Below are positions 2,584-61,265 of a stretch of 64,000 nucleotides of DNA, one piece after another. A program made the position numbers and the translations under genes. Where the stretch lies: contig OZ024746.1 in NCBI GenBank assembly GCA_964016885.1, positions 89,714,001 through 89,778,000 of the forward strand, written 5' to 3'. The DNA is from Eledone cirrhosa. Lineage: Eukaryota. The notes beneath the pieces were generated by a model that saw nothing but the letters and a program-made list of their open reading frames with translations, made no database searches and had not been told where the DNA came from. How positions within the stretch are numbered: the stretch's first letter is position 1; the number at the start of each line of letters is the position of its first letter.

Positions 2584-3294
2584 TTTAGTACCGCATTAAC
2601 GAAGCTTTAAGTTGCGGCCAAGTAAACGAATGCAAATTCGGTATGTAGCTTTAACACTCGATAGGGAATAGCACGCCAGAGTAATAACAATACGTTTAGA
2701 CAGATTTGCAAATTAAATATAGCGATCGGCTGGCCGCATTGCCATAGCAAGGAAAATGGTTAGACTCAGGAAAAGATTTTAGACTGACCTGGACCAAGCG
2801 CAGAGACCGAATGCAATATATAATGCATATCGTATGCACACGATATACATCACATACAACACACAACATCCACGCTAGGTTTCTGTAAATCTGAGATCGA
2901 CTAATTCCGCTTGCAGGGTTATTGGTCTTTGACGACAGAACAAAGGATTTACTTCTTCAACAAGTCTTGCGTTCTTTAGCCTCTGCGGGTGTGTTCTAGT
3001 AGTAAATTTCGCTATTGACACGTGGTTTTCTAGCGGTGAATTCGAAACTTAAGACAAAGGAATGAAATTCCCTTAGACAAACCGAATTAAGCACTCAACC
3101 AGAAGTTATCAAACAAACATAAACAATTAATCAATAGAATTGTCTAATTAAATTAATCAGTTAATCGTTAATTATAGGAGTTAAAATACAAATTTAAGTA
3201 CAGCAGTAACATTACAGAACGGAGTGAAAGACTCACTATAATCTCTATAATTTAATGAGGCGAAGAGTAGATTCCAGACTCTTTGTAAATCATC

Positions 3295-3483: not shown

Positions 3484-3534
<51 letters not shown>

Positions 3535-3657
3535 GGAGGTGAGTTTCATTGTAGTACAATAAAGCAATGCAGATATCGGATAAGTAGCAGTCTACAGTTT
3601 GTAGGACTGGAGTATAAATAATATATAAGATCAAAAGATGGTTAAAAGAGTTCCATG

Positions 3658-3728
3658 TATTTTATTATGCGCATTTCAAAAACAAATATCATCATGCGAT
3701 GACATTTGCGTTTTCGTCAGATAAAATA
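3658..3728 (-). ncRNA. Type-I minimal hammerhead ribozyme (mirror copy)
   Basis: Reverse complement of the 3937-4007 motif with CTGACGA and GAAA cores intact. Confidence 0.8.
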
Positions 3729-3936
3729 GGGAGACATGATATGAAGGTGAACAAACACTTGTGAATAGTGTAGTTTTAAATCAACATAACAAAAGTAGTT
3801 TTAGATTGATGTGTGATATTGGGAAAAACTTGACGAGGGGGGGGGGGTTCACACGTCAATCTAAAACTACTTTTCTTATGTTGATTTAAAACTGCACTAT
3901 TCACAACTGTTTTTTAACCTTCATATCATGTCTCCC

Positions 3937-4007
3937 TATTTTATCTGACGAAAACGCAAATGTCATCGCATGATGGTATTTGCTTTTGAAATGCGCATAA
4001 TAAAATA
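3937..4007 (+). ncRNA. Type-I minimal hammerhead ribozyme
   Basis: TATTTTAT-CTGACGA-[AAACGCAAATGTCATC gcat GATGGTATTTGCTTTT]-GAAA-T GCGC A-TA-ATAAAATA: 8-bp stem I, long stem II, palindromic stem III, AUA cleavage triplet. Confidence 0.85.
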
Positions 4008-4039
4008 CATGGAACTCTTTTAACCATCTTTTGATCTTA

Positions 4040-4770: not shown

Positions 4771-5100
4771 TATTTCAATGTCCCCGCGCATATACATATA
4801 CATGCACCCATGCATACACACATATAATCATACACACACATTTACATGTGTATATACATATTTACACACTTTTGGATGGCCGTTGACTGTTATGAGTTCT
4901 TCTCCTCTTTGTCAGGTATTGTTTTTTGTCCTGTAGGGTGTCCAAAATCACCCTCTTCACCAAGTAAACTTGGTGGGTTGCCGGTTCACTCTTGAGTGCT
5001 ACTGGTAACATGTAATCCAGTAAAAACCTATCGCATGTTCGGGTCGTCGGCGACATACATACATAAAGATGTATGTACATGCACATGTCATTGCTATGAA

Positions 5101-5292
5101 TAATTGTTTCTACTTTTGGCACAAGGCCAGCAATTATCCCAGTGCATTAATGGTGCTTTATTTTTTCGACCTCGTGAGGATGAAAGGCAAAGCTAACCTC
5201 GGCGACATTTGGACTCAGAACGTAAATGGTAATAACTCTATGCTGCAAAGCATGGTGACTGACGCTCCTCCGATACTCCCCAAACCACCACC
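5101..5292 (-). mobile_element. SINE family A
   Basis: Reverse-complement match to the family A consensus; in tandem with the next copy. Confidence 0.85.
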
Positions 5293-5304
5293 CTGGGCTG
5301 TAAA

Positions 5305-5493
5305 TAATTATTTCTACTTTTGGCACAAGGCCAGCAATTATTCCAATGGATTACTGGTACTTTATTTTATCGACTCCGTAAGGATTAAAGGCAAAGTTAA
5401 CCTCGGCGTGATTTGAACTCAGACAATAAAGGGCCGTAACTCTATGCTGGAAAGTATGGCGTCCGATATTCTACCGATACTGCCAATCCACCG
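5305..5493 (-). mobile_element. SINE family A
   Basis: Near full length; TSD GTAAATAATTATT at about 5300 and 5493. Confidence 0.9.
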
Positions 5494-6344
5494 TAAATAA
5501 TTATTACCAAATCATTACCTTCTTGGGCACAAGCATGACCTTTCCTGAGCTGATGGTACTTCTTCCATCATAACATGTTGGCTTCTGGTCAGCAATAATG
5601 ACTGAATCTATGTAGTAACTACTTACACATTCCTATAAAGTTCCTAACGTCTTATGATAACTTCAATGTCAATCTCTTCGCCCAAAGTCATTAGATTGGT
5701 TGACATTTAGAAGGGTGTTAAATTTCGTTGAAGTGTCTTATTCGTGATCTCAAATAATTTGATGGTATTAAGTAGAGTGCTCTAAACTACGAAAGTGGAC
5801 GATCTAGTTATACACATGTAACTACGTATATACAGGTTGGGAACAGAGACTACGCCGATGTGTATATGATTATACACATTTTTAATATATAGACATGTTG
5901 ACCTGCTACATATGCAAAATAACGATTTTCAGACATAGGTAGGTTTAAATCAGAAGGTGTATATATCATATAAATGATCAGAAACAGACATGCCTCTGTT
6001 GCGTTTATATACTCATTTATTAATAGTAACTTTCTGGAATGGACGTACTAATTTGCATATAATTAGCTCTCGTGTTAGTAATTAATTAAGTTATATATTA
6101 AGAAGTGCGATATGCCATGGAAGTGTACAATACATTAATATATGTATATATACAGGGTAGGGAACCGAGACTGAGCTGTTGTGCATATAAATATACACAT
6201 ATTTAAAATATAGACATGTAGACATGCAGGACTTATGAACTTCTCTGTATTTCTGGAAAGTGTTACTATTTATTGCTATTTGATTCTTCACTTTTGAGCA
6301 ATTAATAGACATTCCTGACGCCATTACAGTTTAAAAAAAAACGC

Positions 6345-11386: not shown

Positions 11387-11716
11387 AGTGTAACTTGGAA
11401 TTACTGTAGGTTCACCCGTATGAGCACTCGATATTTAGGTTCACTTCTGTGGCGAGGTGTAGAGCTATACAGAGTGTATTATATTGAAAGGATAACAAGG
11501 ACGATTGGTTACACCTTCATTACATTTATTGGTTGGTGAGGCGCGTTTCGCCACGGATTAGCTCAAGGTTCGATATGTATCGATCTTACCCGACTCTGTA
11601 ATCCGCAGCTCGACGGACCCCTTAAAATGCTAATAGAAAATGAATACATGCTATATGATAATGTCAGAAGTTCATATGTTGGTCAATAAGGATTGTTTTT
11701 TTGATTGGTGGAATAG

Positions 11717-11720: not shown

Positions 11721-11773
<53 letters not shown>

Positions 11774-12237
11774 CGTTTCTGAAATTGTTTAGCTAGATTC
11801 TTTATCTGAAAACGTGTGTTGAAACCGATATTGTTATGCTTTGGGAAGGTCATGTTGCCAATAAGAAAGTGAAAGCAACTGGTGCGTGTGTTTCTTATTG
11901 GCAACATGACTCTCACAAAGCTAACAATTTATATATATATATATATATTCATATATACAGATGTCAATCGAAACAATATCATCTCGATTTTGTTTTACCA
12001 TCTCAATGAAATGTGCAAGCGAATGCTTCGCCTACACACACGGTATTGTTATGGGAACCAAAGTAAGTTTGTTTTGCAATGCATATCAGTGAGCAGTGAA
12101 CTAAGCAAGGCAGAAATATTCACTTACATTACAATTAAATTCTTGCCAATACCGCGGTTTCAGACCCAACGAAAAGAATATACAAATGGCCTTAATTAAA
12201 ATGAACCAGATAATTATCAAATTTAATACAAATTTAA

Positions 12238-16090: not shown

Positions 16091-16339
16091 AATGAGGGTT
16101 TCATAGGCATATTTGTGTTTGTTATATCAATATTGAATTCTACCCCCAAAACTGAAGAGTTTATATATATAAGAGTTTATATATATAAGGTTGCAACGTT
16201 TTTTGAAATATCCAGTTCTGCGTTTACAGATTGACTTTGTTAGTTTCAGAAGATCCCGTTAAGGGTGAAAGCAGCGATTCTTTGCTTAAACTTTAATCTG
16301 TTATTTTAATAAATATATATATATATATATATATATATT

Positions 16340-17159
<820 letters not shown>

Positions 17160-27074: not shown

Positions 27075-27310
27075 TGAGGAGTGTAACGCGGAGTTACTCT
27101 TGGTTGGTTCACCCGGGTGAGCACTCGATGTTTAGTTTCACTTCTCTACCGAAGTGCAGATCTAGACCGAGTGTAGTATAAAAAATAAAACAAGGAAGAC
27201 TGGATACTCCTTCATTCCGTTTATTGGTTGGTGGCGCGCGTTTTGCCACCGATCAGCTCAAGGTTCAATCTGTATCGATCTAGCAGAACTCTGTAATCCA
27301 CGGCTCGTGT
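27075..27310 (-). mobile_element. Family H5 copy
   Basis: Homologous to 11385-11615; starts at a (TA)n tract; AGCACTCGA at 27120-27128. Confidence 0.7.
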
Positions 27311-27394: not shown

Positions 27395-27575
27395 ATAATA
27401 TAAGATCAAAAGATGGTTAAAAAAGTTCCATGTATTTTATTTTATAAAATACATGGAAGTCTTTTAACCATCTTTTGATCTTATATTATTTATACTCCAG
27501 TCCTATAAACTGTTGAGTGCTACTTATCCGATATTTGCATTGCTTTATTGTGCTACAATAAAACTCACCTCCTAC

Positions 27576-27578
<3 letters not shown>
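27395..27578 (+). mobile_element. Short fold-back cassette, family H1
   Basis: About 45-bp arms meeting at 27441-27443; tail matches the reverse complement of 3531-3620; (TA)n flanks. Confidence 0.85.
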
Positions 27579-27627
<49 letters not shown>

Positions 27628-27631
<4 letters not shown>

Positions 27632-27834
27632 AACCAGTAAGACCCCGACAGCTGAGCTCAAGCCGTTTCGACGGCTAATTCTGGACTAACTTTTTTTAGT
27701 CCAGAATTAGCCGTCGAAACGGCTTGAGCTCAGCTGTCGGGGTCTTACTGGTTCCTATTACCCACTCTACTACCTCAAGCATTGAGTACTTTGGTGCGTT
27801 ATGGTCCACCTGGTTCCTTACCACATTTCCTCCG

Positions 27835-27836
<2 letters not shown>
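27628..27836 (+). mobile_element. Fold-back cassette family H3
   Basis: Perfect 62-bp inverted arms 27628-27689 and 27696-27757; tail with TTGAGTACT; (TA)n flanks. Confidence 0.85.
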
Positions 27837-28894: not shown

Positions 28895-29529
28895 CATATT
28901 TCCTTTGTCTAACACTTTGAAACTACTCGCCAAAAACCGGAAGTTGCTTCCCTTGTTGGAAATAACACGTGACAACTAAATATACGATTCGCTTGCTCAT
29001 AGCAGCATCATTTTGAGTTCGCCCTGATCTTAAGCATAACGAAATTCCTGTTGATGAAATGAGTCCTCTGTTCGTTCATGGAATACGACGAGCGTGCCAG
29101 TTACGTAAGTCGGATATTTGATTTCGAATTCATAGAAACACTTTAAATAATAACGTTTGATCTGTCCAGGTGTATCTTTTCAACCTGTTAGTTTTCTCGT
29201 TATTTTGGTATTGTTCAATTTGTCAAGCTATTTAAACGTATGTTATTACTCTAAGGACCTACCCTTATTGAGTGCTTTGCTAACTCATTCATAGTGTAGG
29301 TCGACTTTGCTTGCCCACAGCCAAATATTCGATTTTACTAAGCCTCCACTTATATTATTTTGTCCTAGATTTAATAATTAATTAATTAATTTAATTAGAC
29401 AATTCTGTTGGTTGGTTAATATTTGTGTTTGTTTAATAACATCTGGTTGAGAGCTTTTATTCTGAATGTTAGCGGAAATTAGAATATTTCCTTTGTTTAA
29501 CACTTTGAATCGATTTTACTACGCCTTCA

Positions 29530-35599: not shown

Positions 35600-36560
35600 T
35601 GGGACTACGATTATGTTGTGGTAGCGGTGTTGTGGTGGGAAGTGTTTTTCGAGGAGCCTAAAGAAGATTGCTACCTCGGCATTGCGGGGAGCGTTGAACC
35701 ACGTTACGTGGCGTGAGCGGTGGCGTCGCCTGCTGGTTCCGCTAAGGGAAGCTGGATAGAAAGAGATTTCCTCCCTAAAGCCGCTTCGCTTGAGGGCTTG
35801 ATTGTAATGAGGCGCATGTTCATCGAATATCTGCTCATTAGCGGACAAGCGAAATATGCGGAGGGAGATGTTTTTAACCAGTTTATTGGTGATGTTTCTA
35901 GGATGGTTAGTGCTGGGTGGATGTAGTGAAGGTTCTGGTTTGGTTTCCTGTAAGGGTAGTACAGAACATTTTCGAAGTTGAATGTAACATCCATGAAATT
36001 GACTCAGGTTAGAGACGTTTGTAGGGTGATTTTAAATCCCCAGTCCCGGAAGAAGTTGATTAGTTGTTTACGAACCCGGTTTGTACTACTTGGGTTGTAC
36101 CCTTTGAGGGTAAGGAGCACATCGTCTCGGTACAATCCACAGCCGAATGCAGAAAACATTTCGGTGATTTTACGTAGTAGGAATAATCCTATAAGATCGG
36201 TCACCTCGGCTGAGTCGGTCGCGCCCATACTGACGTCGAAGGGGGAATCGGGAGCTCTCTTTATCCACTTGGAGTTGACAAAAAGGTGGATTGTCTGCCT
36301 GGCGTCAAGAATGATGATTCTTTCTTGGTCGGTGATGGGTGTGAGTGTTTTGGCAAAGTCCAAAGCGGCCGTAAGGAGCGGTAAGGTAAAAGAGGCGTAA
36401 TAGCTCTCTATCTCGAACTGGATGAAATTGGTGTCGCGTTTGTCCTCAATATTCCTGAACCATGAGATGACTTCCTGGGTGCTGACCCAAAGGCTAAGTC
36501 TCGTATTTTGCTTAACTTTTGGTATAACGCGGTCTAGCATCTTTTTACTGATTCTGCCTA
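35600..36560 (-). mobile_element. Penelope-like element reverse transcriptase fragment (pseudogene)
   Basis: FIQFEIESYYAS, FDVSMGATDSAEVTDLIGLFLL, CGLYRDDVL, F.DVTFN...YYPYRKPN, HVTWFNAP...FFRLLEKHFPPQH; frameshifts; starts at a (TA)n tract. Confidence 0.9.
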
Positions 36561-36871
36561 TATATATATATAAATTAAAATGAAACCGTGTTCTGACTAA
36601 ACACTATCTATGGAAGTGTAAAATGACTCCTGTTTCTAATGAATTAAACCTAACCTATACATTCGTAAAATTATGATGGATGCATTTATAACACATGTAT
36701 TTCATTTGATTAATGACATTTATACACAATGCAGGTAAAATATTGACACGAACGTGCTTAGCAGGAATTTGCCGCTGTTCATAATTTTCAACATATTTAC
36801 GTAGATACAGAATTCCTCTTTGGAATTAAGTATATGCGTATATATTTGTTCATTATTAATCTTCATTATTT

Positions 36872-37224: not shown

Positions 37225-37413
37225 CGGTGAATTGGCAGTATCGGTAGAGCGTCAGACACCATGCTTTACAGCATAGAGCTATGGCCCTTTACGTTCTGAG
37301 TTCAAATCCCGCCGACGTTAACTTTGCCTTTCATCCTTACGGGGTCGATAAAATAAAGTACCATTAATGCTCTGGGATAATTGCTGGCCTTGTGCCAAAA
37401 GTAGAAACAATTA
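37225..37413 (+). mobile_element. SINE family A
   Basis: Full length with A box TGGCAGTATCGG and B box GAGTTCAAATCCC. Confidence 0.92.
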
Positions 37414-37446
37414 TATAGTGCGTTGATTGGTGTGATACTCACATAA

Positions 37447-37632
37447 TTAATTGTTTCTACTTTTGGCACAAGGCCAGCAATTAAACAGTGGATTACTGGT
37501 ACTTTATTTTATCGACGCCATAAGGATGAAAGGCAAAGTTAACATCGGCGGGATTAGAAGTCAGACCATAAAGGGCCGTAACTCTTTGTTGCAAAGCATA
37601 GCGACAGACCCTCTACCGATACTGCCAATCCA
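37447..37632 (-). mobile_element. SINE family A
   Basis: Near full length; TSD GATACTCA.ATAATTAAT. Confidence 0.9.
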
Positions 37633-40568: not shown

Positions 40569-40754
40569 AGAGGATGTGGTAAGATACCATGTGGACCATA
40601 ACGCACCAGGGTACTCAATATTTAGTTTAGTGAGTGGATAATAGGAAAAGAGTCGGGACTCCGACGTCTGAGCTCCGGCAGATCCGGCAGATCCGACAGC
40701 TAGATCCAAACTCGAATTTAGCTGTCGAAACAGTGGGGGTTCAGCCAGACTCTT
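40566..40754 (-). mobile_element. Diverged cassette family H3 copy
   Basis: Tail GTGGACCATAACGCACCAGGGTACTCAAT matches 16910-16940; residual hairpin GACAGCTA...TAGCTGTC-GAAAC. Confidence 0.7.
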
Positions 40755-47030: not shown

Positions 47031-47228
47031 TATTTATTAAAATAACAAGTTACAGTTTAAGCAAAGAATGGCTGCTTTCACCCTTAACGGGAAAGCAGCG
47101 ATTCTTTCCTTAAACTTTAATCTGTTATTCTAATAAATATTTGCTCTCGGGTTCTTATATATTTGATATATATTCATCCTTATCGAGCCCTCTTTGGTTT
47201 TAGTCTTCACATTTATTATTATTACTAA
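47031..47228 (+). mobile_element. Fold-back cassette family H6
   Basis: Arms 47031-47079 and 47091-47139 around ACCCTTAACGG; homologous to 16247-16315. Confidence 0.75.
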
Positions 47229-48739: not shown

Positions 48740-48815
<76 letters not shown>

Positions 48816-48854
48816 GATATTAACAAATGGAAACTATATTTATAAAACCATATT

Positions 48855-48919
48855 TATTTCATTATACATATTTCAAGGATACCCAGTTAAATTATGGTAT
48901 ACCTTCATCAGACAAAATA
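48855..48919 (-). ncRNA. Type-I hammerhead ribozyme (mirror copy)
   Basis: Reverse complement of 49060-49124 with cores intact. Confidence 0.72.
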
Positions 48920-49059
48920 CAATATATACCAGTTTTATAGATAAACATTAACGTGCCCTTTCAAAATGCGATCGTTACTTTTGGAAGACATCAGGATAAA
49001 GGAACGGTCGCATTTTGAAAGGGTACGTCAATGTTTATCTATAAAACTGGTATATATTG

Positions 49060-49124
49060 TATTTTGTCTGATGAAGGCATACCATAATTTGACTCAGTAT
49101 CCTTGAAATATGTATAATGAAATA
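49060..49124 (+). ncRNA. Type-I hammerhead ribozyme
   Basis: TATTTTGT-CTGATGA-AGGCATAC...GTATCCTT-GAAA-T ATGT A-TA-ATGAAATA; 8-bp stem I with two G-U pairs. Confidence 0.75.
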
Positions 49125-49251
49125 AATATGGTTTTATAAATATAGTTTCCATTTGTTAATATCGTATATCTACTCCATATAGTTGTTGAGTGCTTTATAT
49201 CAATTATAAAAATATTTACTTGTTGTATCCCAACAATTTAAATAGAACTTT

Positions 49252-49311
<60 letters not shown>

Positions 49312-50626: not shown

Positions 50627-50627
50627 A

Positions 50628-50926
50628 ATGGAAGTGGTTACACAACAGTTAGTTCACCAAACCGAGAACAATTGTTTCTCCTTAGCGGATCCTCAGCTCG
50701 TAATGGAAAGGGTTATACGGAACAGGCAGGACAACCGTACCCTTTTTTTCGCTCCTTTCGAAGCGGACCTTCTTGACCGTACCATGTCCATTATAAGCTG
50801 AGGATCCGCTATGGTGAAGCAACTGTTCTCGGTATGATAAACTAACTGCTGTGTATCCACTTCTACCTAACTCGACCCATGGACTGAATGCTCTACCACC
50901 ACGGATATTACCTTCCAGTGTTCTAC

Positions 50927-50930
<4 letters not shown>
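50628..50930 (+). mobile_element. Fold-back hammerhead cassette family H4
   Basis: Inverted arms at about 50631-50710 and 50785-50863; tail 50864-50930 with AACTC...CTGAATGCT; (TA)n flanks. Confidence 0.8.
50663..50700 (-). ncRNA. Type-I minimal hammerhead ribozyme
   Basis: Minus strand CGAG-CTGAGGA-TCC gctaa GGA-GAAA-C AATT G-TT-CTCG: all three stems pair, GUU triplet, palindromic AACAATTGTT. Confidence 0.88.
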
Positions 50931-51577: not shown

Positions 51578-52790
51578 GTATGTAGAGGTGGATAAGACAT
51601 GTGTCGAGGTATCGAGTAGGTTGGCCGATCTCACTCAAAAATGGGCCGAGAGGAAACAATCCCTGAATAGTCAGGTGGAGGTGGCGAGCGCACATATCAC
51701 GTCCGTCATGTACTACTTCCTGACCGTCTTCAATTGCAGCCGTTCCCACCTCATCAGATTGGAGCCCCTGCTCTGCAAATTCTCGAGGAATGGCCTGGTT
51801 CCATTGGTGAGGCGGTTCATCTCTTTACGCGAATAGCTTGGTGTTCTGTGGCTGATGATGCACACACATGCTCTTAGACTACGGCCACTTTAGGTTAACA
51901 ATACTGGTTGCCGTTTGTAAGACAGGCCTTTCTGCAGTGACAAAGACTGGTTGCCGTTTGTAAGACAGGCCTTTCTACAGTGAACAAGACTGGTTGCCGT
52001 TTGTAAGATAGGCCTTTCTGCAGTGACAAAGACTGGTTGCCGTTTGTAAGACAGGCCTTTCTGCAGTGAACAAGACTGGTTGCCGTTTGTAAGACAGGCC
52101 TTTCTGCAGTGAACAAGACTGGTTGCCGTTTGTAAGACAGGCCTTTCTGCAGTGAACAAGACTGGTTGCCGTTTGTAAGACAGGCCTTTCTGCAGTGAAC
52201 AAGACTGGTTGCCGTTTGTATCTTTGACTGAGCTTCACTCCTGGATAATTAAGAGACCGAGTCTCGGCGCCTGGTAACTGGTATATGGCCAGATGCTCAC
52301 TACCCTCTACCCCGCAGGCAATGGTCAGTGGCAATTCCATTGTAGAGTTCTAAAAATATTTAAAGGCCCTCGAAAAGGCTATGGACATCGACGGAATCAA
52401 ACCGACCAGTCTGAAGACATTTAAGCCGGGGACCTTGAATAATTTCCTGAATTATCCCATTTTGTAGTGTTACCTGCTGGCATTTCCGGTTCAATATACA
52501 AACTACAGACATGGAGGTGCTAACATATGGACGGACCTTTCCGAGATGCGTGCAGAACGACGAAACCATCATGCACGCACTCGTCCAATATCCGTGCATT
52601 ACTGACTGGTGGAGTTATGTCGAACAGCTGTTATCACGCGTGGGACGAATACTGCTATTGACCGAGTCCATCGTGAAGATCGCCCCACTGCCTTCTATTG
52701 GCCGGGAAGGGCTGCATTTTTCCTCTACCTGGTGGTCGTAGCGAAAGAGGTTGTGTGATGGAAGATGTTCAAAGATTAAAGGCAGACACT
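51578..52790 (+). mobile_element. Tx1/L1-clade LINE ORF2 3' fragment (pseudogene)
   Basis: LTQKWAERKQSL...EVASAHITSVMYY...LVPLVRR...LGVLWLMMHTHALRL, then FPRCVQNDETIMHALVQYP (decayed C-terminal zinc knuckle). Confidence 0.8.
51903..52220 (+). repeat. 43-bp minisatellite, about 7.4 copies
   Basis: ACTGGTTGCCGTTTGTAAGACAGGCCTTTCTGCAGTGAACAAG at 51903, 51946, 51989 and onward; no spacers. Confidence 0.95.
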
Positions 52791-54545: not shown

Positions 54546-54580
<35 letters not shown>

Positions 54581-54585
<5 letters not shown>

Positions 54586-54872
54586 TTGTAAACAAATATT
54601 CCGTATTAATCCGTAGTGTCTAGCAACCACCGTTGCTCATTTGTTCAACACTGACAAGGGAACGCTGTACTCAACGTATACCTTTCTGCCAGATACTTGA
54701 ACGTTCAACTATCTGGCAGGAAGGTATACGTTGAGTACAGCGCTCCTTTGTCTGTCTTGAACAAATGAGGAACGGTGGTTGCTAGACACTACGGCTTAAT
54801 ACGGGATGTTTGTTTACAAACACACGGAGATAACAGCCGTACTAAGAGTGGGAAATGATTTTTTTCCGTTTA
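54581..54872 (+). repeat. Spacer-less fold-back palindrome with short tail between microsatellites
   Basis: About 120-bp arms centred on TTGAAC|GTTCAA (54702/54703); tail 54826-54872. Confidence 0.85.
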
Positions 54873-54882
54873 TATATATATT

Positions 54883-54996
<114 letters not shown>

Positions 54997-60823: not shown

Positions 60824-61012
60824 AATGACTGTTTCTACTTTCGGCACAAGGCCGCCAACAATTACCTCAGTGCATTACTGGTGCTTTAGTTTATCAACCC
60901 CCGTAAGGATAAAAGGAAAATTAACCGCGGCTGGATTTGTCTCGGAATGTAAATGGCCATAACACTATGTTGCTTATCATGGTTTCTAACGCTCTACCAA
61001 TATGCCCATACA
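60824..61012 (-). mobile_element. SINE family A (diverged)
   Basis: Degraded full-length match. Confidence 0.8.
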
Positions 61013-61076
61013 CTGGCCATCGTATATAACATTAATGTTTAGTTGAGCTTTCTTTGAAAATATGTGAATACAACAT

Positions 61077-61265
61077 AATTATTTCTACTTTTGGCACAAG
61101 GCCAGCAATTATCCCAGTACATTACTGGTACTTTATTTTATCGACCCCGTAATGATGAAAGGCAAAGTTAACCTCGGCGGGATTTGAACTCAGACCATAA
61201 AGAACCGTAACTCTTTGCTGCAAAGCATAGCGTCCGACCCTCTACCGAAACTGCCAATCCACCGT
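61077..61265 (-). mobile_element. SINE family A
   Basis: Full length, close to consensus. Confidence 0.92.

Follow-up and report, generated by a model that had tools for sequence, protein, structure and literature searches.

The closest described relatives of the sequences analyzed here are the Hydra-clade Penelope-like retroelements (PLEs) with a C-terminal endonuclease (Craig et al. 2021, PMC8557442). They are characterized by RWR/RWK and DKT motifs, a CxCx5C linker, a C-terminal GIY-YIG domain and a canonical hammerhead, and they occupy (TA)n targets as tandem and inverted copies with a one-sided tail, which that paper attributes to endonuclease-mediated resolution. The text of PMC8557442 that was examined contains no occurrence of "hairpin" or "stem-loop". 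In the Poseidon element PAc (Frangieh et al. 2024, PMC11167929), the tail is delimited by two internal reverse transcriptase (RT) starts that lie downstream of the hammerhead; each strand of the target is cut and then extended, the protein is predicted to be dimeric, and the ribozyme is dispensable in vitro. Small, tandem, non-autonomous elements mobilised by PLEs have been described as non-LTR retrozymes (PMC7229834; bioRxiv 10.64898/2026.07.22.740005). The elements, their hammerheads, the tail and internal initiation are already known. The present analysis bears on how the RTs of PLEs, the sister group of telomerase, choose a template and a start, and on how the one-sided tail and the head-to-head repeats originate.

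Hairpin sites in the window and the elements that carry them

The window is a 64-kb stretch (64,000 nucleotides) of the Eledone cirrhosa genome (OZ024746.1), and plain coordinates below refer to it. A preliminary description had listed ten 3' boxes in it as parts of an ACTC/GAGT stem-loop. All ten were found where they had been placed, and seven exactly so (27493-27521, 49171-49194, 29247-29276, 50869-50892, and, on the minus strand, 11423, 27120 and 3090), with small errors at the other three: ACTC of the 27765 site actually begins at 27764, the 5' half of the 16931 site (minus) is decayed (CTCTCC), and the 40610 site (minus) ends in GAGTACC. The 50869 copy is point-changed, and GAGTGCT is present in most of the 30 family copies fetched. 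We conclude that Hydra-clade PLEs and their non-coding dependants carry a bulged hairpin twice, here called A and B, and that the motif is the first copy. The features follow; F numbers denote families and L numbers fetched loci.

27398..27577, no strand: F2 two-ended insertion in (TA)n; left, inverted arm to site A; right, direct arm and 91-nt tail to site B
27494..27521, plus: hairpin A of F2 (ACTC, upper stem CAGT-ACTG, TT bulge, GAGT-GCT); F2 hairpin B lies in read-through copy L051
27630..27835, no strand: F1 two-ended insertion, A end left, B end right, 80-nt tail
27716..27738, plus: 3' half of the F1 type I hammerhead (GAAA, stem III, predicted cleavage after GUC)
27764..27790, plus: hairpin A of F1
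49172..49194, plus: hairpin A of F3, within insertion 48815-49254
49068-49116, plus, and 48863-48911, minus: hammerheads of F3 insertion 48815-49254, from sequence
29248..29276, plus: hairpin A of F4 (non-coding tandem family, 616-nt unit)
29362..29455, plus: hairpin B of F4, long loop, decayed; U-A basal pair (TCTC/GAGA) in other copies
50870..50892, plus: hairpin A of F11, point-changed, with a 1-nt bulge or G-A mismatch, within insertion 50627-50929
11423..11475, minus: hairpin A of F6, 40-nt loop with inner hairpin
27120..27172, minus: hairpin A of F6, second copy
16931..16958, minus: hairpin A of an F1 subfamily, 5' half decayed, within insertion 16885-17084
40610..40635, minus: hairpin A of an F1-like subfamily
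3090..3181, minus: hairpin B of F5 (non-coding tandem family, 650-nt unit), loop of ~75 nt
2653..2682, minus: hairpin A of F5, decayed copy, absent from the preliminary list
3586..3613, minus: decayed hairpin A of a second F2 insertion (3532-4037)
3666-3720, minus, and 3945-3999, plus: hammerheads of the second F2 insertion (3532-4037)
47143..47191, plus: additional hairpin A (GCTC/GAGC-CCT), from a further family that shows hairpin B in L241 and L248
49349..49372, minus: extra hairpin (GCTC/GAGC-ACT) of a further family, 40 nt before a (TA)n junction
35609..36561, minus: fragment of a broken Hydra PLE RT that shares 73-84% identity with intact F1

The pattern ACTC-N5-35-TYGAGTRCT matched four times in the window, compared with 0.11 in 100 shuffles, none of which reached four. 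The preliminary description had named positional enrichment in tails as the point on which its proposal would stand or fall, and the motif proved to be enriched. We searched for the box YYGAGTRCT in 800 kb of the 3.0-Gb E. cirrhosa genome, sampled at round coordinates as 80 stretches of 10 kb each. A (TA)n run followed 30-89 nt behind 44 of the 71 boxes, whereas 3.2 would be expected, and the fresh 400-kb half of this sample (the 40 stretches fetched last) replicated the enrichment with 24 of 40 boxes. Since family copies are non-independent in such counts, it is the family-level tests that carry weight. Between the tails of eight window families, we did not observe any pairwise DNA similarity behind the box relative to shuffles (28 pairs, all p > 0.07). 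Chance, a microsatellite artefact and simple family homology are rejected as sources of the motif on the basis of the shuffles, the (TA)n enrichment and the tail comparison.

The distance of 40-60 nt from box to (TA)n that had been reported for the window was recovered as 37-60 nt at eight of the ten sites; 29247 and 3090 deviate because both sit in tandem units. This distance is the A-to-B spacer. More palindrome-plus-tail cassettes lie in (TA)n at 11772-11930 and 16339-16759 and have no clear copy of the motif. A SINE-like repeat of 190 nt is abundant in the window as well, its copies frequently paired in tandem or inverted order (37228-37632, 5099-5494, 60824-61265 and ~20 further places), and there is a tandem array at 51894-52220 made up of 7.5 copies of a 43-nt unit, 95% alike and open in two frames.

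Family F1, whose 3' end forms the cassette at 27630-27835, was found by way of the broken RT at 35609-36561. It is intact, with 784-aa frames in tandem units of 3,531 nt. The frame is a single ORF with YRDD, in which the RT is followed by a C-terminal GIY-YIG domain (VIY...YIG, residue 606 of 717), although a Pfam scan of the protein gave no match at 1e-3. F1 has an N-terminal RWR motif of the RWK type and DKT where other elements have DKG (RW[KR] in 93 and DK[TS] in 96 of the 97 sequences in alignment A1), a CxCx5C linker, and CxxC and CxH near the C-terminus (residues 572, 670 and 698). Its elements occupy (TA)n as tandem and inverted copies with a tail, like the described Hydra PLEs; tails here are 57-113 nt long rather than the 30-40 nt given in PMC8557442, and F1 is 3.5 kb long, intact and young. 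Naiad elements and SECIS, considered as first identities, were dropped, the endonuclease being C-terminal; F1 also departs from Naiad/Chlamys PLEs in that the endonuclease is not N-terminal and a hammerhead is present. A canonical type I hammerhead, predicted by sequence and our own descriptor, precedes the motif in F1, F2, F3 and F11, and the F1 hammerhead is complete, with a U3-A8 core, in L026 and L028. None was detected in F4 or F5.

The families of the window had been described as unrelated, a reading that does not hold for the coding ones, which all belong to the Hydra clade. F3, F6 and F10 read through into Hydra ORF starts that are 27-64% identical to one another and to F1 (F3 hairpin B and ORF start in L205 and L209; F6 hairpin B and ORF start in L219), and the arms of F2 and F11 contain Hydra RT, with F2 arms bordering RT-coding DNA in L060 and L072 and RT lying upstream of F11 in L252. 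Because the coding families are all Hydra, the window families are best seen as diverged relatives and dependants. The dependants F4 (29247) and F5 (2653 and 3090) are non-coding and form tandem arrays, with unit lengths of 616 and 650 nt, respectively. They differ from the retrozymes described in PMC7229834 and bioRxiv 10.64898/2026.07.22.740005 in having no detectable hammerhead and retaining twin hairpins instead; the available texts of those reports do not name such a motif.

Loci L026-L045 (G000 C1, C2, C13, C19 and others) hold many intact, near-identical Hydra PLE copies with 784-aa frames in tandem arrays, a U3-A8 hammerhead core and a 1.2-kb spacer behind the ORF. Judging from these sequences, the family is young and probably active, and the E. 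cirrhosa genome offers many intact copies of it for study. Short, internally deleted elements in L220-L222 and L195 keep a hairpin, the first Hydra ORF codons and a hammerhead and are retrozyme-like dependants, and at L210:1600-1900 a Hydra 5' end is fused to an endonuclease fragment of Naiad/Neptune type (CxxxxC..C zinc finger, NLIYCIKC).

Structure and distribution of the twin hairpin

The consensus hairpin consists of RCUC, an upper stem, a loop of 4 to ~75 nt, a U-Y bulge, GAGY and RCU-N-U. The final two U residues of RCU-N-U, which lie outside the search anchor, are present in 41 and 38 of 42 hairpins. A MAFFT alignment of 30 hairpins left the stems unaligned, so pairs were counted by script from anchors set by sequence only, using one hairpin A per protein family (26 families). 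Upper pair 1 of hairpin A is C-G in 13 and U-A in 12 of the 26 families; shuffles gave a mean of 12.5 Watson-Crick pairs, and none of 20,000 reached 25. Pair 2 is Watson-Crick in 20 of 23 families, compared with 8.1 in partner shuffles, and pairs 3 and 4 are so in 11 of 19 and 8 of 14, each above partner shuffles. On an RT tree made by a quick method from F1 and metagenome relatives only, in which L132 and L144 form long branches and may be wrong ORFs, pair 1 switches seven to eight times, with at least four to five of the changes forced by strong branches. Covariation in hairpin B alone (16 families) was not significant. The basal pair is mostly G-C, with A-U in hairpin A of E. cirrhosa and U-A in hairpin B of F4. 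The lower stem is nearly invariant and therefore gives little information on pairing; it includes three ACTC/GAGC mismatches. We conclude from sequence comparison that hairpin A is a conserved structured element with compensatory changes in its upper stem. The motif that the preliminary description had recognized is real, but it is no plain stem, having a covarying upper stem, a 2-nt U-Y bulge and a second copy. Minimum-energy folds produced both hairpins in about three of seven contexts and neither hairpin in F1, suggesting that the stem is weak and probably held by protein.

These properties bear on the possibility that the motif is read as DNA, with the GIY-YIG endonuclease recognizing the donor or displaced cDNA and nicking the upstream TA, so that ends would be set during resolution or tandem formation. 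The D. virilis tail is reported to be required for endonuclease recognition (PMC11167929), the invariant bases would suit sequence reading, TA precedes both sites, and wobble counts favor neither strand, showing no preference for the RNA strand. Covariation across a bulge and loops of 4 to 75 nt would be unexpected for a duplex DNA site, however, and the finished B end does not contain hairpin B. We consider this explanation quite unlikely.

Read-through copies give the order of the element as hammerhead, 38-60 nt, hairpin A, spacer, hairpin B and AUG, with hairpin B sitting 12-62 nt upstream of the AUG. Genome-wide, two boxes 55-85 nt apart were matched 130 times, compared with four times for the backward control; two other pattern searches, which came near their backward controls (116 vs. 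47 and 31 vs. 26), were used for fetching loci only. The twin layout is present in nine families of the E. cirrhosa genome. It also recurs in a metagenome set of 78 loci of marine Hydra PLE relatives (52 clusters at 70% identity, median protein identity ~47%), in which the layout was counted at the 30 loci with a hammerhead directly before the ORF start, leaving out the other 48. Hairpin A is present in 28 of these 30 intact 5' regions, 38-57 nt behind the cleavage site, and both hairpins are complete in 24; the remaining six have an N, variant halves or a composite locus. Hydra consensus sequences already published for coral, sea cucumber and sea louse contain the hairpin as well, and in the consensus file of PMC8557442 it is clear in three of the six new Hydra families (twice in Hydra-1_Ajap), present as variants in two and not evident in one. 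When the consensus files of Naiad and Chlamys were searched with six 9-letter forms of the box, three matches came up and none was at an end; all three seem to be internal, and the 5' half is missing from each. The RCUC/GAGY hairpin was not found in the 97 letters of PAc printed in PMC11167929. Rfam gave no match at gathering score in six loci (28,363 bases), where its sensitivity is limited, since the hammerheads of these loci escaped detection as well. Neither the twin hairpin nor the pairing of A and B ends described below was found in Rfam or in full-text searches of freely accessible papers. We regard the twin hairpin as a new cis-element of a known retroelement clade.

Insertion ends and the pairing of A with B

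The own-genome loci, 1.2 Mb in all, contain 1,768 (TA)n junctions. Mapping placed 251 of them near a hairpin, and in 200 of these the point of divergence is 3-9 nt 5' of the first base of hairpin A or B. F1 junctions fall at -3 of B in 36 of 40 cases and at -5 of A in 29 of 37, and across the whole 3,531-nt F1 unit, A or B accounts for 23 of the 26 junctions in sense orientation, with three at other places. Together with the positional enrichment of the box, these junctions bear out the earlier suggestion of a cis signal at the boundary between pLTR and tail. TAT or ATA occurs at -8 to -2 of 31 of 42 hairpins, compared with 7-17 of 42 in four upstream windows, and so a nicked (TA)n primer could anneal beside the hairpin. 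The tail is the A-to-B interval.

Two-ended insertions of hammerhead-bearing families comprised 43 A+B pairs, no A+A and no B+B, with two more having an unassigned end. This set is partly selected for B, as most F2/F11 loci (26 pairs) were fetched with a B-arm query, and 27 "F6 xx" pairs were left out of the count as template artefacts (simple or foreign repeat). In unselected DNA, we observed 14 A+B, two A+A and no B+B pairs, with one unassigned (P = 0.002 vs. free choice); two of the unselected pairs are also part of the 43-pair set, and L396, first classed as A+A, proved to be A+B on inspection. The F3a "x-3xx" and "5p" classes of this sample were left out as template artefacts (simple or foreign repeat in the template). 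One of the two unselected A+A pairs has mirrored flanks and looks secondary. At L384:230-640, an A+A palindrome has a symmetry extending into the flanks, pointing to secondary palindrome homogenisation after insertion.

In our preferred reading, to which we assign a probability of about 0.7, each hairpin is an RT recognition site on RNA, and the inverted cassette results from priming twice on the same template. Because an end-defining hairpin is not itself part of the copy, it must be read on a precursor, a geometry that favors a signal read on the template. An RT-endonuclease, probably in two copies, would bind both hairpins of one read-through RNA and cut both strands of (TA)n; each target 3' end would anneal to UA just 5' of a hairpin, giving rise to two cDNAs. 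The trailing RT would displace, or stall at, the leading RT, and the cDNA 3' ends would join head to head; the inverted arm would then terminate at A, while the A-to-B tail would be part of the direct arm. Binding, the dimer and the single template are steps that we infer, the dimer step from the predicted dimeric protein of PAc only (PMC11167929). Two primings would match both the two internal starts and the predicted dimer of PAc, which differs in belonging to another clade and in starting in an AC-rich stem-loop without target homology; the available text of PMC11167929 names no conserved duplicated signal.

The fixed register of 3-9 nt and the absence of the hairpin from the copy could also be accounted for if the hairpins were RNA-processing signals, just 5' of which a host or element nuclease cuts, with ordinary target-primed reverse transcription (TPRT) proceeding from the resulting 3' ends. 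A few B arms do end at hairpin A, as this explanation would allow. Two RNAs with random ends, however, predict that A+A and B+B should be about as common as A+B, which made up 14 of the 16 unselected pairs; an RNA cut at A cannot template B arms running kilobases beyond A; and PAc starts internally on uncut RNA (PMC11167929). We therefore hold RNA processing to be unlikely.

The arms of the 43 cassettes are equal within 30 nt in 19, with the A arm longer in 16 and the B arm longer in eight; for several F3 and F11 cassettes, the references were too short to give full arm lengths. Near-equal arms are what would be expected if inverted cassettes formed when one strand folds back or primes itself, a mechanism that PMC3846280 proposed for an antisense template, and the hairpin did no more than pause or stop the synthesis of the second strand. 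One B-primed strand folding back cannot be the source of the longer A arms (up to 5.4 kb vs. a B arm of 0.1 kb) or of the four B arms that end inside the tail and never reach site A, and it leaves the identical hairpin behind site B unexplained. We judge it to be highly improbable.

The non-coding families F4 and F5 retain both hairpins, and F4 has 27 B ends and F5 21, with no A end in either and one B+B pair among them. Since hairpin A is kept without A ends, the hairpin alone is insufficient at site A, which needs something more. Both families combine the lack of a detectable hammerhead with the longest spacers, and either the ribozyme or spacer length may govern the second priming. In F4/F5 loci L309-L363 an inverted arm is almost never seen (one two-ended case), unlike in the hammerhead-bearing families.

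The unused hairpin A of F4 and F5, along with the position of hairpin B 12-62 nt before the AUG, would also suit a role of the hairpins in the leader (translation, RNA stability or ribozyme control), the ends adjoining them only because RT starts at accessible UA beside any stable stem. Yet F4 and F5 keep both hairpins with neither an ORF nor a detectable hammerhead, and elsewhere in the 3.5-kb F1 unit, stems and UA stretches see very little use (3 of 26). Such a leader function strikes us as very unlikely to be the explanation.

In LINE-1 twin priming, two target-primed cDNAs from one RNA yield an inverted insertion; the second priming is opportunistic, and the arms do not overlap. The hepadnavirus epsilon and the template-boundary elements of telomerase consist of a lower stem, a bulge and an upper stem. 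In Hydra PLEs, in contrast to LINE-1, the starts are fixed by a repeated structure and the arms usually overlap. Their bulged stem resembles epsilon and the template-boundary elements, by shape only, as a likely RT-binding form that fixes a start, but the start lies 5' of the stem and the primer is target DNA.

Our tentative broader proposal, to which we give somewhat less than even odds, is that Hydra PLEs integrate by programmed twin priming, in which a dimeric RT-endonuclease would dock on two identical hairpins of one RNA, prime cDNA from each cut (TA)n strand and join the cDNAs, a paired, clade-specific signal being the general cause of the PLE tail. If this were true, a module of ~100 nt would be the whole cis requirement and portable to any cargo RNA, making the twin hairpin a candidate minimal module for RNA-templated DNA insertion. 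Because the hairpin is duplicated, covaries and keeps a fixed distance to each end, it lends itself to tests with point mutants, an assay existing for another clade, and it provides an annotation rule for the ends of Hydra elements and their non-coding dependants.

A tailed, (TA)n-inserted, non-coding tandem family with a unit of ~450 nt (54570-54883 in the window; L366-L383) has two 3' ends ~55-60 nt apart. The RCUC/GAGY hairpin was not found in it, indicating that the motif is not universal to tailed repeats in this genome, and three of its motifs were not found in the Craig consensus files. Behind each of the two ends lies a short stretch with GCCG, which may be another paired signal.
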